A stretch of 64,000 bases of DNA from Promethearchaeota archaeon (GTDB taxonomy: Archaea; Asgardarchaeota; Lokiarchaeia; Sigyniarchaeales; SOKP01), in NCBI GenBank assembly GCA_016926735.1, contig JAFGOA010000223.1:31276-95275 (forward strand), given 5' to 3'. Position 1 is the first letter of the stretch. Each line of letters begins with the position of its first letter. The notes below the pieces were generated by a model that searched no databases, had not been told where the DNA came from, and saw nothing but the letters and a program-made list of their open reading frames with translations. Below, one piece after another: positions 1,958-11,997 of the stretch. Position numbers and translations under genes: made by a program.

Positions 1958-2055
1958 TTTTTGAAAGTTTAAGATTTTTTTTTAGGTATTTTATTCTAAT
2001 TTGATATAATTTAAAGAGGGAAAAATAGGACCCGGAGCGGGAATTGAACCCGCGT

Positions 2056-2084
2056 TTCCTCAGCATAAGAATAATCTTAAACTT
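2056..2084 (-). other. tRNA-His intron 2 (29 nt, variable loop), BHB type
   Basis: 4-bp helix CCTT/GAGG (one T.G). 3-nt bulges AGA and AAA. 9-position inner helix AGTTTAAGA/TCTTATGCT with one T.T mismatch and loop TTAT. Excision leaves a 4-nt variable loop AGAC. Confidence 0.7.
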
Positions 2085-2114
2085 CTAAGGATTCACAGTC
2101 CCCAATACTAACCA

Positions 2115-2144
2115 TTATACAAATTACAGTAGAACTGGAATTTT
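2115..2144 (-). other. tRNA-His intron 1 (30 nt, D-loop, between nt 15 and 16), BHB type
   Basis: 4-bp helix GTAT/GTAT (2 A-U plus 2 G.U). 3-nt bulges AGA and AAT. Inner hairpin AAATT-C-CAG/CTG-T-AATTT. Excision gives the canonical D-loop AGTGGTTA. Confidence 0.75.
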
Positions 2145-7503: not shown

Positions 7504-8595
7504 ATGAAAAAAATACGATATCCTACTGAAAATGAAAAAGAAGGGATTACTAAGCTAGAAAATTTGATTAAAAATTATCCATTTCATTTTTTGAAGGTTT
7601 ATAACGAATTTAAACAAGATCAAGAATTCCCTATGCTTCAAATAATTATTTCTTGTAAGATGAAAGGATTTTCTATTCCCTCTTCAAATAATTATATGCG
7701 AAATATAATGCGATATAGAGGATTAAATACAGATGATATCAATCGATTTGAAAATTTAGTTATTAATCATCTAAATTCTTTAATAGAGGAAATAGGATAT
7801 ACAGAAACTAAAGAATATTTAGAAATGAATAATTCATTTAAAGAACTTAATGTGTGGATTGAAGAAATGTATAAAAGATTAAGTTATTTTGATAATGATG
7901 GTGGGTGGAATAAAGTTGGAGTGGATGACTACCAAAGAATCGAAGAAATTTTAAAAAGAGAAAAAATATATAGAGGGACAGAAAACGATGTAAAGGTTAA
8001 ATTCAAACAAATTTTTGGTTTTCAAGATTTAGTTATAAGAGAAGAAACATACAAGAATCTTACTACTTCAGAAGAATTTGATGAGATTATTTCGAATATA
8101 TTAATGTTACTCGGAAAGGGATCATATAAATGCAATGGTGGAAAGGTTAGATTAATTGGATCTTCAGTAGAAGATATCGAAGAAAGTTGCATCTATTCTT
8201 CCCTTCAAAAATATCCCAGAGTATTGAAAAATATGGATCAAGCATTGGAACATAAAATTAAGAAGAAATGGAATGAAGTAGCATTGTATTGCTGTAAAGC
8301 TATTGAATATTTTTATAAAATAATATTAGGTAATAAAAAAAAATATGAAAAATTAACACTTAGATCATTAACAGAAGCAATAAGAAGAAATCAAAATAAA
8401 TTATTAAAAATTGATGATACTGTGTGGCTGGGAGTTGATAAATTATTACAATCTTGTGTTAATTTAGTTGGGACAATAAGAAATTCCAGAGACTCAGGTC
8501 ACGGAAATGATCGAGATGTTGAAAAATGGGAAAGTCAAATGGTATACAATTATACAATCGTATTATTAAGAACTCTAATACAAATTATAAAATAA
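7504..8595 (+). CDS. Abi_C/HEPN-like C-terminal domain protein (abortive-infection-like)
   Basis: The C-terminal ~110 aa resemble the Abi_C family. They include VGTIRNSRDSGHGN, an R-x(n)-H HEPN-type motif. The N-terminal 250 aa are uncharacterised. Confidence 0.55.
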   Translation: MKKIRYPTENEKEGITKLENLIKNYPFHFLKVYNEFKQDQEFPMLQIIISCKMKGFSIPSSNNYMRNIMRYRGLNTDDINRFENLVINHLNSLIEEIGYTETKEYLEMNNSFKELNVWIEEMYKRLSYFDNDGGWNKVGVDDYQRIEEILKREKIYRGTENDVKVKFKQIFGFQDLVIREETYKNLTTSEEFDEIISNILMLLGKGSYKCNGGKVRLIGSSVEDIEESCIYSSLQKYPRVLKNMDQALEHKIKKKWNEVALYCCKAIEYFYKIILGNKKKYEKLTLRSLTEAIRRNQNKLLKIDDTVWLGVDKLLQSCVNLVGTIRNSRDSGHGNDRDVEKWESQMVYNYTIVLLRTLIQIIK

Positions 8596-8712
8596 TTGAA
8601 TTTCAACAATAAGTTTTGGAGTTTTATAAAAAATTACCAATTTTTATAAATAATTTAAAGGTTATAAATAATTACTAATCTATAATTTTTTAAATCTTTA
8701 AAAAAGATAAAA

Positions 8713-9138
8713 ATGAGCGAACAATGGAAACATGCTGATTTAGCCTCTCTTATTGGAAAATTAGCATGGATTATTGGTGTTATTTGTGGTGTGATTCAAT
8801 TAATTATTGGAATTGCATATGGATCTTTCACCTTATTAGGTACTCTCTATATTGTTCCAATAAATATATTTTGGGCGATTGGCGGTGTGATTATTATAAT
8901 AATATCCCTTTTAATTATTAAACCCCAATTTTCAGATAAATGTGCAAATAAGGAATGGGACGCACTATATGATTGGGCATTAGATCTTGGAGGAACTAAA
9001 ATATGGTGGATGTTAATTTGGATTGTTGTATTTATTATTTTTGGCTGGGGATATAGTGCTGGTCCAATTATAATAGTCTTTCTTCTTCTTTTCCTTGCTG
9101 GTCCAGAGAATACTAAATGGGACAAAAATAAAAAATAA
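8713..9138 (+). CDS. small integral membrane protein (about 4 TM helices)
   Basis: 141 aa with four hydrophobic stretches. Sits directly downstream of the Abi_C-like gene. Confidence 0.55.
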   Translation: MSEQWKHADLASLIGKLAWIIGVICGVIQLIIGIAYGSFTLLGTLYIVPINIFWAIGGVIIIIISLLIIKPQFSDKCANKEWDALYDWALDLGGTKIWWMLIWIVVFIIFGWGYSAGPIIIVFLLLFLAGPENTKWDKNKK

Positions 9139-9283
9139 TTATTTTTTTTTCTTTTTCTGCTAATCTTGAAAATATGTTAAAAATAAAAATTATTTTATTA
9201 AATTATCTAAAAGTATTACCTATGATTAAAAAAAAGCACGTATAATCATTAAAAATTAAAAAAGAAATTAAAAAAAAGAGATG

Positions 9284-9414
9284 TTATAGTCCTTTAGGGC
9301 CATTTTCATATATTTTATATGCTTCATCAACAGATGTATTATCATGAACAATTGCTCTTACAGCTTTGATCATACCAATAGGACTATCACTTTGAAAAAT
9401 ATTTCTTTCCATAT
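9284..9414 (-). pseudogene. orphan second copy of the aldolase last exon (no upstream exons)
   Basis: Gap-free alignment with 10764..10894; I count 20 mismatches over the 129 nt from ATG to stop. It encodes [42 protein letters not shown], with the conserved GRN glycine changed to Glu. Confidence 0.75.
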
Positions 9415-9430
9415 ATTCAATTACGATATT

Positions 9431-10579
9431 TTATTTTAATTCTTCAAATTTCTTTCCTTTAAGTTGCTTATGCCAATAATGTGGTTTTGGTTTTTTAATA
9501 TTCCATTTTAAACATATTTCATTAACAATCCTTGGATATACATTATATATTTCACATATTTTTTTAATTGGCATTTTCCAAACTAATTTTATCAGTTCAT
9601 CCTTTTGAATGGAGTCTTCAAAAATATTTTTAGATGCAACTCTAAAATATTTCCTCTTTCGCGATAAACTATCTGGAAAATTATCTAACATTTCATTAAA
9701 TAGTTTTCCGCCCAAACTAAAATAATAATTCCCTTTACCATCGGGATTGATTTTATGAGGAATATTAAATCTTTTTTTTATTTCTTCTAAAATTAATTTA
9801 CTACCAATATGAAATTGATTAGTCCCTTCTTTTCCATCACCATCAAAAAAACCTAGTAAAAATGCCAGATCTAATTCTCTATTATCTAAATTAGGAAATC
9901 TTGTTCTTTTTTTACTACTTTTTACATAACCTAATGTGTATAGATCACTTTGAACATTAGAATTTTTAAAAGTAATCCTTACATATGTTCTTAGTTCATT
10001 TTTAGTCATTTTTGTTCGATATTTCTTGTATTTAGGATTTAAACCTATCGCTTTACAATACCTATCTATTAAAATTTCATCATTTTTGCTTAATTCAAGT
10101 TTTAATTCTCCTCTTTCTCCTAAATAAACTTCAGCCCACAATATTCCAAGCCAATAAGCTTTATTTTTTGAATTAATTTTTTTAAAGTAATTTATATTTA
10201 AATCAAGATGATAGTTTAAAACTTTTAGACCTTTTTTTCTAGATATTGGTAATTCTTCATTTGATTCTTGGTATTTCTTAATAAATTTTAATGTATTCTT
10301 CCCACGTAAGCCAAAATAAGCTTTAATATTATTACTCCATTCGTTTAATTCATCTAAAGCAATTTTAAATTGAGGATTCACTTTAATATTTCTTATAATT
10401 CTTTTTATACGTCTTTCATAATCACATAATATAAGACTTAATTTTTTATAAGATAAACTTCCATTATGAATTATTTTAACTTTAAAACCATTAATAAATA
10501 AGGTGGATGATACAATCTTAAAAATCTCGTTTCTTAAATCTTTTATTAATTCTGATGCAGAATAAGTAAGTCTTCTCAT
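9431..10579 (-). CDS. LAGLIDADG-family homing endonuclease-like protein with C-terminal HTH
   Basis: Two LAGLIDADG-type motifs (KAYWLGILWAEVYLG and LAFLLGFFDGDGKEG). The C-terminus PIKKICEIYNVYPRIVNEICLKW is HTH-like. Confidence 0.75.
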   Translation of the reverse strand: MRRLTYSASELIKDLRNEIFKIVSSTLFINGFKVKIIHNGSLSYKKLSLILCDYERRIKRIIRNIKVNPQFKIALDELNEWSNNIKAYFGLRGKNTLKFIKKYQESNEELPISRKKGLKVLNYHLDLNINYFKKINSKNKAYWLGILWAEVYLGERGELKLELSKNDEILIDRYCKAIGLNPKYKKYRTKMTKNELRTYVRITFKNSNVQSDLYTLGYVKSSKKRTRFPNLDNRELDLAFLLGFFDGDGKEGTNQFHIGSKLILEEIKKRFNIPHKINPDGKGNYYFSLGGKLFNEMLDNFPDSLSRKRKYFRVASKNIFEDSIQKDELIKLVWKMPIKKICEIYNVYPRIVNEICLKWNIKKPKPHYWHKQLKGKKFEELK

Positions 10580-10763
10580 TCCTCAATTATTTTGTTGTGT
10601 TTATTTCTGGTCTTTTTTCTATTTTTATCTAATTGAATTACTTCTCTAGTTTAAAGAATCTTTATTGATTTATATGGTTTTTATTAATATATATTTTAAT
10701 AGAGTCTGCAGATTTTTTTAAATAAAATATTTATATTATAACAAGAAAAAAAAAATAAAAAAA

Positions 10764-11608
10764 TTAAAGTCCTTTTGGACCGTTTTCATATATGCTATAT
10801 GCTTCATCAATAGACTTATTCTCATGAACTATAGCTCTTACTGCTTTAATCATGCCAATAGGGCTGTCACTTTGGAATATATTTCTTCCCATATTTGCGC
10901 CTATAATTATAAAAAATAGTTATAGTCTACGCCGACAGCTCCTTTATCAATAGCATTCCTTGCCATAATTAAAGCATCACGCTCCTCAATCTTCTTTCCA
11001 CCAGCTATTACAACCGGTACTGGAGCGATAGAAGTGACTTCGTCGAAGTTCTCACAATAATATGTTTTTACAAAAGTGGCACCTATTTCTGCTGCCATTC
11101 TACTTGCCATACCCAAATATCTTGCATCTCTAACCATTTCCCGTCCAACTGCTGTTACTGCTAAGACTGGAATACCATAATCTTGTCCCCAATTTACAAT
11201 CTTAGTTAAATTCATTAAAGATTGTTTTTCAAATTCACCACCTACAAAGATGGAACAGGTAATTGCTGAAACATTTAATCTTATCGCATCTTCAATTGTA
11301 ACATTTATTTCTTCATTTGAAAGTTCTTTTAACATACTTGCTCCGGCAGATACTCTTAGAACGATAGGTACATCAAAATCCGGTGAAACACAATTTCGAA
11401 GCATACCTCGTGTTAACATTAAAGCATCAGCATATTCAAAAAGGGGTTCTAACTTCTTAAAAGATTTTAACATTCCTGGGATATTGCCAAAATATTCATG
11501 AGTATGTATTAATTATACATATTTTCCATGATCGACAGCAAGCATGACGCAATGCCCAGATTTAGGTTTAATTATTCGGGATAATCTATTTTGCATTCCC
11601 CAATCCAT
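10764..11608 (-). CDS. class I aldolase of the DhnA family (fructose-bisphosphate aldolase / ADH synthase type), split into three exons by two BHB mini-introns
   Basis: Exons are 11608..11525, 11494..10927 and 10894..10764. The joined product is 260 aa. It has MLAVDHG-YFGNIPG, the Schiff-base Lys context ATFVKTYY, and GAVGVDMGRNIFQ. Unspliced, it contains an in-frame TAA and a frameshift. Confidence 0.8.
10895..10926 (-). other. aldolase intron 2 (32 nt), BHB type
   Basis: Helix GCGT(10932-10929)/GCGC(10900-10897). Bulges AGA and AAA. Inner helix CTATAA/TTATAG. Excision corrects the frame and gives GAVG-VDM-GRN spacing. Confidence 0.7.
11495..11524 (-). other. aldolase intron 1 (30 nt), BHB type
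   Basis: Helix CATG(11530-11527)/CATG(11500-11497). Bulges GAA and AAT. 9-position inner helix with one A.C mismatch and loop AATTA. Excision removes the in-frame TAA and gives AVDHG|YFGNIPG. Confidence 0.7.
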
Positions 11609-11733
11609 AGTTTTATCACTTATTTCTTATAATAATTTTATTTTGATATCGTAATAAGTAATGAAATTATTATAAATTTTAAGTTTAATAGCTAAAATAA
11701 GATATTTTAAAAATTTGTATTAAATATTGTTTT

Positions 11734-11997
11734 TTATTTCAATTCTGTTGTTTTGGTTGCCAAAATAAGATCTATTTTTTCATATCCTCTAATTATACCC
11801 TTTTGATCGATAAATACAACGAATTGATGATCAGAACAGACAATCCCTGCAGGAACATGTATTTTAACACAGCCAGATTCTTTTTTTGAAAAAATTTCTG
11901 TTGGAATTTTAACTATTTTATCAATTCCGCAAGTTGGACAAGATATATTGAACTCTCTCATGATTGATTCTAATTTCTTATAATTAATATTTAACAT
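11734..11997 (-). CDS. hypothetical zinc-ribbon protein
   Basis: 87 aa; CPTCG near the N-terminus with further Cys/His downstream. Confidence 0.45.
   Translation of the reverse strand: MLNINYKKLESIMREFNISCPTCGIDKIVKIPTEIFSKKESGCVKIHVPAGIVCSDHQFVVFIDQKGIIRGYEKIDLILATKTTELK

Follow-up and report, generated by a model that had tools for sequence, protein, structure and literature searches.

An aldolase-like gene with two copies of its last exon

The 64,000-nucleotide (nt) stretch analysed here, which we call the window, belongs to contig JAFGOA010000223.1 of a Lokiarchaeota metagenome-assembled genome with about 27% G+C. Our subject is one locus in it, where an aldolase-like gene split by two mini-introns is followed by a free-standing gene for a LAGLIDADG homing endonuclease and then by a second copy of the last aldolase exon. 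It must be noted that the evidence presented in this work is comparative throughout, that the loci compared lie mostly on metagenomic contigs and that the exon in question is short.

The host gene lies on the minus strand and consists of three exons and two introns (Table 1). The spliced product (11608..11525 + 11494..10927 + 10894..10764) has 260 amino acids (aa) and matches the NCBIfam model NF006081 (LsrF-type thiolase) from end to end with 387 bits (cut-off 297), whereas its Pfam match is DeoC/LacD. In view of these two matches "aldolase" is acceptable as a family label for this LsrF-like protein of the DeoC/LacD family, the LsrF thiolase type being the best match. In current annotation such genes appear as a truncated DeoC open reading frame (ORF), a 42-aa orphan and a "hypothetical protein". 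A terminator-like site with its T run is found at the 3' end of the aldolase gene (10781..10768).

Table 1. Features of the locus in the window, and extent of the distal exon-3 copy at related loci (minus-strand features are given from their 5' end; L numbers are our handles for loci on other contigs)
Feature	Position	Strand	Remarks
Exon 1, aldolase gene	11608..11525	-	28 codons, last residues ...VDHG; from the ORF list and the NF006081 match of the spliced product
Intron 1	11524..11495	-	30 nt, canonical bulge-helix-bulge (BHB) mini-intron
Exon 2, aldolase gene	11494..10927	-	568 nt, 3' end ...GGC GUA G
Intron 2	10926..10895	-	32 nt, relaxed BHB mini-intron, exactly at the duplication breakpoint
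Proximal exon 3	10894..10764	-	functional, 42 codons + stop; presumed imported copy, by analogy with L162
Spacer	10763..10580	-	184 nt; poly-T (terminator-like) right after the aldolase stop; GAGG 4 nt before the endonuclease ATG
Endonuclease gene	10579..9431	-	free-standing, double-motif LAGLIDADG, 382 aa
Junction, endonuclease stop to displaced exon	9430..9415	-	16 nt; no likeness to intron 2; BHB cannot form
Distal exon 3	9414..9284	-	presumed displaced resident, full length, G2E in the invariant GRN motif; contiguous with native downstream flank
Native downstream neighbour gene	8713..9138	+	convergent; 141 aa, membrane-protein look (by eye), no Pfam match
Distal copy in L162			full length, minus at most the first 2-4 nt
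Distal copy in L098			codons 3-42
Distal copy in L001			codons 5-42
Distal copy in L096			about codons 10-41
Distal copy in L004			codons 12-42
Distal copy in L094			codons 17-42
Distal copy in L092			single weak translated match only
Distal copy in L086, L091, L095			none detectable

The segment 10894..10764 recurs without gaps 1480 nt downstream on the same strand, and a repeat search returned the pair as its family D1, with two copies. When 10960..10740(-) is aligned with 9480..9260(-), the similarity extends from A.ATATGG to the stop codon and the T-rich tail. The copies differ at 20 of 129 nt (also 20 over 131 nt): 24 codons are identical, 13 carry synonymous changes only and five are replaced (G2E, E24D, K26T, I28V and S33K). 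By the Nei-Gojobori method the proportion of synonymous differences (pS) is 0.56 and that of nonsynonymous differences (pN) 0.059, which corresponds to a ratio of nonsynonymous to synonymous divergence (dN/dS) of 0.06. The tblastn E-values of 1e-22 to 1e-25 exclude chance likeness. The distal copy begins at the first base of the exon and is an intact ORF.

A first-pass annotation, made from the letters of this DNA alone, had described the gapless recurrence with the same numbers of mismatches, synonymous codons and replacements, its edges at the 3' splice site of intron 2 and at the stop codon, the 184-nt spacer, and the 382-aa double-motif ORF on the same strand; our recount agrees exactly, and so do the alignment, the coordinates and the motifs. 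The same annotation had the Gly-to-Glu change of the distal copy hit a "catalytic GRN motif". The change is there, and the Gly of MGRN is invariant across all functional alleles that we examined; we call the motif invariant, its catalytic role being putative.

The free-standing gene encodes a LAGLIDADG endonuclease

The 382-aa ORF, 100% identical to GenBank JXA99_16690, is a double-motif LAGLIDADG homing endonuclease as judged from its two intact acidic residues and its modelled fold. In an alignment of 22 homologues E150 of the first motif, YWLGILWAEVY (YWLGxLWAEVY in the family), is at least 90% conserved, D246 and G249 of the second motif, LLGFFDGDG (LLGFFDG(D/E)G in the family), are invariant, and position 248 is D or E in 22 of 22. 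Both catalytic acidic positions are kept in all 22 aligned sequences. The AlphaFold2 model has a mean predicted local distance difference test score of 87 and shows an N-terminal helical domain, a LAGLIDADG core with the pseudo-dimeric alpha-beta-beta-alpha-beta-beta-alpha fold of a monomeric enzyme, and a C-terminal helical domain with a helix-turn-helix look. The top Foldseek matches in the PDB are all LAGLIDADG proteins (bI3 maturase, which is the best, I-Tsp061I, PI-SceI, I-SceI and I-OnuI); their E-values range from 1e-5 to 1e-3 and their target-normalised TM-scores from 0.28 to 0.52. The matches also include WhiA. A Pfam and NCBIfam search of the endonuclease and of the neighbouring ORFs gave no significant match, the window protein reaching 16.4 bits (E 0.011) against PF14528 (LAGLIDADG_3), below the cut-off of 22.5; many homologues carry a precomputed PF14528 match. 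The family has more than 120 homologues, and all those with a named source are from Asgard archaea.

Two side observations concern this family. Some members form a subfamily with an N-terminal extension of 230-400 aa (L088:527-2398, L089:4001-5842 and L103:2774-5143; P0012, P0013 and P0022), in which a zinc-ribbon-like CxxC...CxxC motif is followed by a conserved helical region. Some distant members (L129:779-1952 and L143:451-1273) look frameshifted, each match falling into two pieces that overlap; this may reflect decay of the genes, as the life cycle of homing endonucleases predicts.

Filled, empty and intron-only alleles

In other Lokiarchaeia all homologues of at least 52% identity for which flanking DNA is available, L089 excepted, border the same LsrF-like aldolase gene at its 3' end. 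The filled set comprises the window, L001-5, L086-88, L091-98 and L162, with L001/2, L004/5 and L086/7 grouped. The endonuclease gene of L088 runs towards the aldolase gene from the opposite strand; the contig of L098 is cut upstream and keeps the downstream remnant; in L089 an upstream aldolase gene is missing, and what there is downstream is a C-terminal aldolase fragment at a distance of 2.4 kb. A displaced copy of exon 3 or a remnant of it is present in seven filled alleles, mostly truncated from the 5' side (Table 1). The contig of L003 ends too early for judging the distal copy.

A scan of species-representative genomes, together with exact look-ups, yielded alleles that have neither interruption nor endonuclease and share the upstream neighbour (L006-L013, L155 and L156-161, from other Promethearchaeota). 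The closest syntenic relative of the window, L015, represents a third state: it has no endonuclease, and its aldolase gene contains introns 1 and 2 and a further mini-intron. Its neighbours correspond to those of the window (877-aa protein, 59-73% identical; 87-aa protein, 68%; 141-aa protein, 78%), the 141-aa gene, which lies directly downstream of the L015 aldolase gene, marking the right-hand synteny border of the insertion. L015 is colinear with window positions 11749..10730 and again with 9412..8629, the latter being 76% identical to L015 5753-6575 from the first exon base through the 141-aa gene. The window thus equals an L015-like locus plus a 1480-bp insert. Cassette-free alleles, which the first-pass annotation had proposed to look for at syntenic loci, therefore occur both as uninterrupted genes and, in L015, as an endonuclease-less locus with synteny on both sides.

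The cassette interior apparently accumulates cargo. In L098 (1199-3390) and L089 (6122-8313) a PARIS-like two-gene defence module stands between the endonuclease gene and the exon-3 remnant, with matches to the AriA ATPase (E 1e-27 to 1e-29) and to AriB (E 2e-25 and 5e-21). At the corresponding place L162 (5769-6721) has ORFs of 168 and 134 aa, and L001 (5165-5593) has a 142-aa ORF on the opposite strand with a membrane-protein look; none of the three has a Pfam match on record.

The proximal copy is foreign and the distal copy native in L162

The decisive comparison is that of L162 (filled) with L156 (empty), the closest filled/empty pair. Their identity is about 93% across the upstream gene and exons 1-2 and falls to about 82% exactly at the intron site. 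Taking the 93.8% identity of exon 2 as background, exon 3 of L156 matches the distal copy of L162 at background level (94.6%), and its proximal copy at only 82.9%, therefore the distal copy of L162 is the native resident and the proximal one was imported. Likeness to the native sequence sets in again at GGGGAG, 2-4 nt into exon 3, and extends into the flank beyond the exon; the uninterrupted exon 2/exon 3 junction of L156 reads ...GGCGCTGTCGGTGTAGACATGGGGAGAAATATCTTCCAA... This comparison bears out, for L162, the earlier proposal that the cassette brings its own 3' exon and displaces the resident one.

The mini-introns of the aldolase gene

A canonical BHB has a 4-bp central helix between two 3-nt bulges, and the cut falls after the second bulge nucleotide. 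Intron 1 conforms to this in textbook fashion (^ marks cuts): central helix CAUG/CAUG, bulges GA^A and AA^U, inner hairpin UAUGUAU/AUACAUA, and an outer helix. With this cut the joined exons encode DHG^YFGN, exactly like the uninterrupted alleles. Only three of 23 alleles contain intron 1 (window, L015 and L004), thus it is not linked to the endonuclease.

In intron 2 the central helix is GCGU/GCGC (4 bp), the 5' bulge AG^A (3 nt) and the inner hairpin CUAUAA.../...UUAUAG; the 3' cut is at the canonical distance of two bases past the central helix. In all 12 distinct alleles it is 32 nt long. Over these alleles 96.8% of the cells pair, compared to 28-44% when the partners are slid; five of the 13 pairs have changed on both sides, and none of 500 shuffles reached the observed covariation score. 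Removal of the intron at GUAG^...AA^AUAUGG restores GAVGVDMGRNIFQ in 12 of 12 alleles with no indel, and the spliced junction predicted from the sequence is GUAG^AUAUGGGAAG. The reading of intron 2 as a BHB intron is supported by this covariation and by the restored frame. The predicted spliced product of L003 is identical over 260 aa to that of an uninterrupted gene on another contig, with a nucleotide difference of 12%; in an exact look-up of six predicted spliced proteins this was the single match, and it is a genomic uninterrupted allele, not a complementary DNA. Spliceosomal-type (GT-AG) mini-introns were considered and rejected: intron 1 lacks an AG, and excision of intron 2 at GT-AG borders would not keep the frame.

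The same geometry makes it unlikely that the distal exon copy serves as an alternative exon, a possibility that the first-pass annotation had raised. Folding and inspection of the sequence show that the six nt preceding the copy, UUGAAU, offer no pairing partner for the GCGU at the 5' splice site and that a BHB does not form, and the copies at other loci are 5'-truncated remnants.

The third mini-intron of L015 (L015:5612-5648, about 37 nt, between IAGG and KK) has a similar layout of 4-bp helix, 3-nt bulge and hairpin, so that up to three BHB-like introns are found in a single Lokiarchaeal metabolic gene.

Intron 2 goes together with the endonuclease

All 12 distinct endonuclease-bearing alleles contain intron 2, as against one of the 11 Lokiarchaeal alleles that lack the endonuclease (Fisher p ~1e-5, not corrected for phylogeny). 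In the window and in L162 the two recombination junctions coincide with the intron site to within a few nt, the left one being the switch from native to foreign sequence and the right one the start of the displaced exon. The exon 2/exon 3 junction, GGYGTAGAYATGGGRAGRAAYAT, is almost invariant and encodes GVDMGRNIF. Because the exon bases that flank intron 2 are nearly the same in carriers and in empty alleles, a recognition site spanning the junction would be interrupted in carriers only by the intron. The link between intron mobility and exon replacement that the first-pass annotation had suggested gains strength from the position of intron 2 at the breakpoint and with its presence in every carrier.

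The same design on other host genes

Family members of only 34-37% identity are found at three loci with unrelated host genes. At each of them a convergent endonuclease gene stands between two copies of a gene end: the last 85-88 codons of a MaoC-like (hydratase) gene in L100 (536-2830) and L102 (3290-5833), and the last 55-60 codons of a P-type ATPase gene in L103 (2432-7247). The similarity of these duplicates runs from a discrete internal point to the stop codon, and pN is 0.13 compared to a pS of 0.82-0.93.

A probable mobile cassette that may cut the site of its own intron

We are confident, short of certainty, that the locus is a mobile cassette with a homing endonuclease and that it belongs to the type called mobile ORFs with C-terminal duplication in fungal mitochondria, here found in an archaeal chromosome. 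The cassette probably works together with the BHB intron that splits its target. More tentatively, and with something less than even confidence, we propose that the 32-nt BHB intron is a co-mobile part of the cassette, carried in by an endonuclease that cuts the insertion site and shielding the carrier by splitting that site, and that the displaced exon is a portable homology arm, which frees the element from downstream synteny and allows cargo such as PARIS.

The cassette would consist of intron 2, a donor exon 3 with about 35 nt of terminator, and the free-standing LAGLIDADG gene, sometimes with cargo; the endonuclease gene would have lodged some 35 nt behind the aldolase terminator. The endonuclease would cut uninterrupted, endonuclease-less aldolase alleles at, or no more than a few nt from, the exon 2/exon 3 junction. 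The left break end would invade exon 2 of the donor, and repair synthesis would copy the intron, the donor exon 3 and the endonuclease gene, while the right break end, the recipient's own exon 3, would be left downstream as a promoterless pseudo-exon starting at the break. The resulting chimaeric gene, made up of native exons 1-2 and the imported exon 3, would stay functional through removal of the mini-intron by EndA, and the intron, by splitting the DNA target, would protect the carrier ("collaborative homing"). Later the displaced exon could act as a portable right-hand homology arm whatever lies beyond it, could be eroded from its 5' side, or could recombine with the proximal copy, which would delete the endonuclease and leave an intron-only, presumably immune allele such as L015. 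As the displaced exon would be re-created from the recipient at each event, its gene-like substitution pattern would be explained. The remnant-less alleles are compatible with ordinary intronless homing, exon 3 being co-converted, or with a remnant that was lost later. That the junction is cleaved, that the intron confers immunity, that the distal copy is used as a homology arm and that the endonuclease is lost by the pathway given here are steps that we infer from the arrangement of the alleles.

Several observations weigh against this interpretation. The position of the target is deduced from the breakpoints, and the functional copies of the MaoC and ATPase genes have no intron at the boundary, so the endonuclease family does not generally need an intron for immunity. 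Intron 2 has no convincing outer helix and its 3' bulge is poorly formed; because of the weak outer helix we class it as a relaxed form. Asgard archaea have been reported to possess an (alpha-beta)2 EndA with an L1 loop that accepts relaxed BHB motifs (PMC5829648). Four endonuclease-bearing alleles (L086, L091, L092 and L095) have at most a faint remnant of the displaced exon. In the window itself the two copies of exon 3 are equally distant from L015 (pS 0.45 and 0.46, with 0.56 between the copies), a three-way tie, and the distance matrix of the 126-nt exon is too noisy for calling the native copy; the proximal copy of the window is thus taken as the foreign one from its position and by analogy with L162. 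The trees give weak evidence of horizontal movement: the neighbour-joining tree of the hosts carries no support values, the distance matrices of host, endonuclease and intron correlate weakly (Spearman 0.39-0.52), and the synonymous sites of the host gene are near saturation. As for a vector, viral contigs contained only distant LAGLIDADG relatives, with at most 35% identity over the core.

The strongest competing explanation, which we nevertheless regard as unlikely, is that the endonuclease homes on a target inside exon 3 or in intergenic DNA, intron 2 being a neutral passenger that was co-converted 130 nt from the endonuclease gene, with immunity acquired otherwise. The cut of a free-standing phage enzyme can lie some distance from the endonuclease gene. 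Such enzymes cleave one of the conserved genes that flank them (PMC6083498), and an off-site target would also suit the MaoC and ATPase cassettes with their intronless boundaries and the many synonymous sites at which the proximal exon differs from native copies. Against it, both junctions lie within a few nt of the intron site in two independent loci, for which the chance is about 1% per locus in a gene of 783 nt, and the intron accompanies the endonuclease in 12 of 12 alleles. The first 16 nt of exon 3 are, moreover, nearly identical in carriers and empty alleles, therefore there is little room for synonymous immunity at that place.

Very improbable, in our judgement, is a single ancestral tandem duplication that arose locally and was inherited vertically, the endonuclease gene having been inserted between the copies and nothing imported. 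It would account for L004 and L094, where the two copies are each other's closest relatives (89-92% at the nucleotide level), and for the endonuclease groups, which partly follow the host groups. If one copy had drifted neutrally after a local duplication, a pairwise dN/dS of about 0.5 would be expected, whereas it is 0.06-0.10 in four aldolase loci (window, L001, L004 and L094), which contradicts local duplication, as do the pN and pS values of the two other host genes; the claim of the first-pass annotation that both copies evolved as parts of functional genes is upheld by the same figures. Carrier and empty alleles are, in addition, interspersed on the host tree, and the L162/L156 comparison, with a distal copy at background level and a proximal copy diverged by 17%, largely refutes this explanation.

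Hardly credible at all is a domesticated LAGLIDADG protein, acting as a maturase-like factor for intron 2 or as a WhiA-like regulator next to an alternative 3' exon: the bI3 maturase and WhiA among the structural matches, the strict association with intron 2 and the intact distal ORF of the window would agree with it, but the catalytic acidic positions are conserved throughout, L015 retains intron 2 without the protein, EndA and a ligase are known to suffice for BHB splicing, members of the family occur on unrelated host genes that show the same kind of duplication, and the distal copies are 5'-truncated in most loci, that of the window having a junction that cannot form a BHB.

Relation to known mobile elements

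It is instructive to compare the Lokiarchaeal cassette with elements described previously. Elements of this kind have been described in fungal mitochondria, and a cyanophage provides the precedent for co-operation between a free-standing endonuclease and an intron; what is different here is the Asgard chromosome, the independent endonuclease gene on either strand, the BHB mini-intron at the breakpoint and the cargo inside. In the open-access literature we found no report of free-standing LAGLIDADG cassettes or of BHB introns in mRNA in Asgard archaea, nor any account of the whole arrangement from archaea in general, an absence which is not proof.

Mobile ORFs with C-terminal duplication were described in the mitochondrial atp6 of Allomyces macrogynus, in atp6, atp9, cox2 and nad3 of Glomus sp., in atp9 of Rhizopus and in cox2 of Mortierella (PMC3630166). 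Their order, i.e. gene core, imported C-terminus, LAGLIDADG (there also GIY-YIG) ORF and displaced native C-terminus, is what we see in the window, L001, L004, L094, L096, L098 and L162, and on other genes in L100, L102 and L103. In both systems the native copy matches close relatives and the inserted copy is diverged in DNA and conserved in protein (here L162 compared with L156), and in both there are ORF-less alleles in relatives (here L006-L013, L015, L155 and L156-L161). It was this signature of a native distal and a diverged proximal copy that established the import of a foreign C-terminus in Allomyces and Glomus mitochondria (PMC3630166). The differences are, apart from organelle versus archaeal chromosome, that the mitochondrial ORF is fused in frame, whereas the Lokiarchaeal one is a separate gene with a 184-nt spacer, a poly-T tract and its own GAGG-ATG; that it can lie on either strand (opposite in L088, L100, L102 and L103); and that a BHB mini-intron stands at the breakpoint and cargo such as PARIS inside. 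Homing-endonuclease-driven exon replacement, which in organelles has chimaeric genes and short-range horizontal transfer among its products, would not be confined to them.

Collaborative homing was defined for the cyanophage enzyme F-CphI, which was shown to cleave the intron site and to be prevented from doing so where the intron is present (PMC6083498). There, as here, the neighbour of a free-standing endonuclease gene is a gene in which an ORF-less intron occupies the presumed cleavage site, and intron and endonuclease are co-inherited. The cyanophage system has a self-splicing group I intron, an enzyme with an Endo VII motif and no exon duplication, in contrast to the protein-spliced 32-nt BHB intron, the LAGLIDADG enzyme and the duplicated exon described here, and what was demonstrated there for cleavage and protection is in our case deduced. 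A further parallel is the intronless homing of T4-like phages, where the enzymes Seg and Mob cut a neighbouring conserved gene in genomes lacking them and spread with co-conversion of the flanks (PMC2790892, PMC2988022). The optional free-standing gene between conserved genes and remnant-less alleles such as L086 are reminiscent of this system, which differs in its GIY-YIG or HNH enzymes, in its phage setting and in having no displaced copy of a gene end.

In archaea, LAGLIDADG enzymes are found inside BHB introns of rRNA genes, I-Tsp061I (PDB 2dch) and I-DmoI among them. The cassette resembles these, as well as inteins and archaeal group I introns (PMC6125680), in fold, domain of life and association with BHB introns; it differs by having the ORF outside the intron, in a protein-coding context and next to an intron that is far too small to hold it. 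The introns themselves call to mind the crenarchaeal cbf5 gene, to our knowledge the only well-studied case of BHB introns in mRNA. Both are short mRNA introns with BHB geometry which are gained and lost among relatives (for cbf5 see PMC2738675), but here they are in Lokiarchaeia, a single metabolic gene has as many as three of them, and one of these shows strict linkage to an endonuclease cassette. The empty, filled and intron-only alleles form a natural set for studying the spread of ORF-less BHB introns to new sites and the reasons for their rarity in the protein-coding genes of archaea. If the proposed mechanism is true, it would be the first collaborative homing of a protein-spliced archaeal intron, and it would provide a DNA-level route by which ORF-less BHB introns enter Asgard protein-coding genes.

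Other observations in the window

There are no further copies of the endonuclease gene or of intron 2 within the window. A scan for sigma-70-type promoters gave fewer matches than shuffled sequences did, the consensus not being applicable to archaea. Two genes away from the cassette there is a 363-aa ORF with no Pfam match (7504..8595, plus strand), whose relatives (44-46% identity) lie about 3 kb from distant members of the endonuclease family in two other contigs (L137:4200-4679 and L138:4137-4721). This proximity could be coincidence or co-travelling.

ARAGORN and Rfam, the latter at its gathering threshold, found nothing at the aldolase locus and one borderline tRNA gene in the whole window (2037..2120, minus strand), which is just above the Rfam threshold (29.4 bits) and was missed by ARAGORN. 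It has a 30-nt insertion at the position of the variable loop, and its acceptor stem is unmatched. This tRNA gene probably contains at least one non-canonically placed intron, in keeping with the report that tRNAs of Asgard archaea are rich in introns (PMC11291895).

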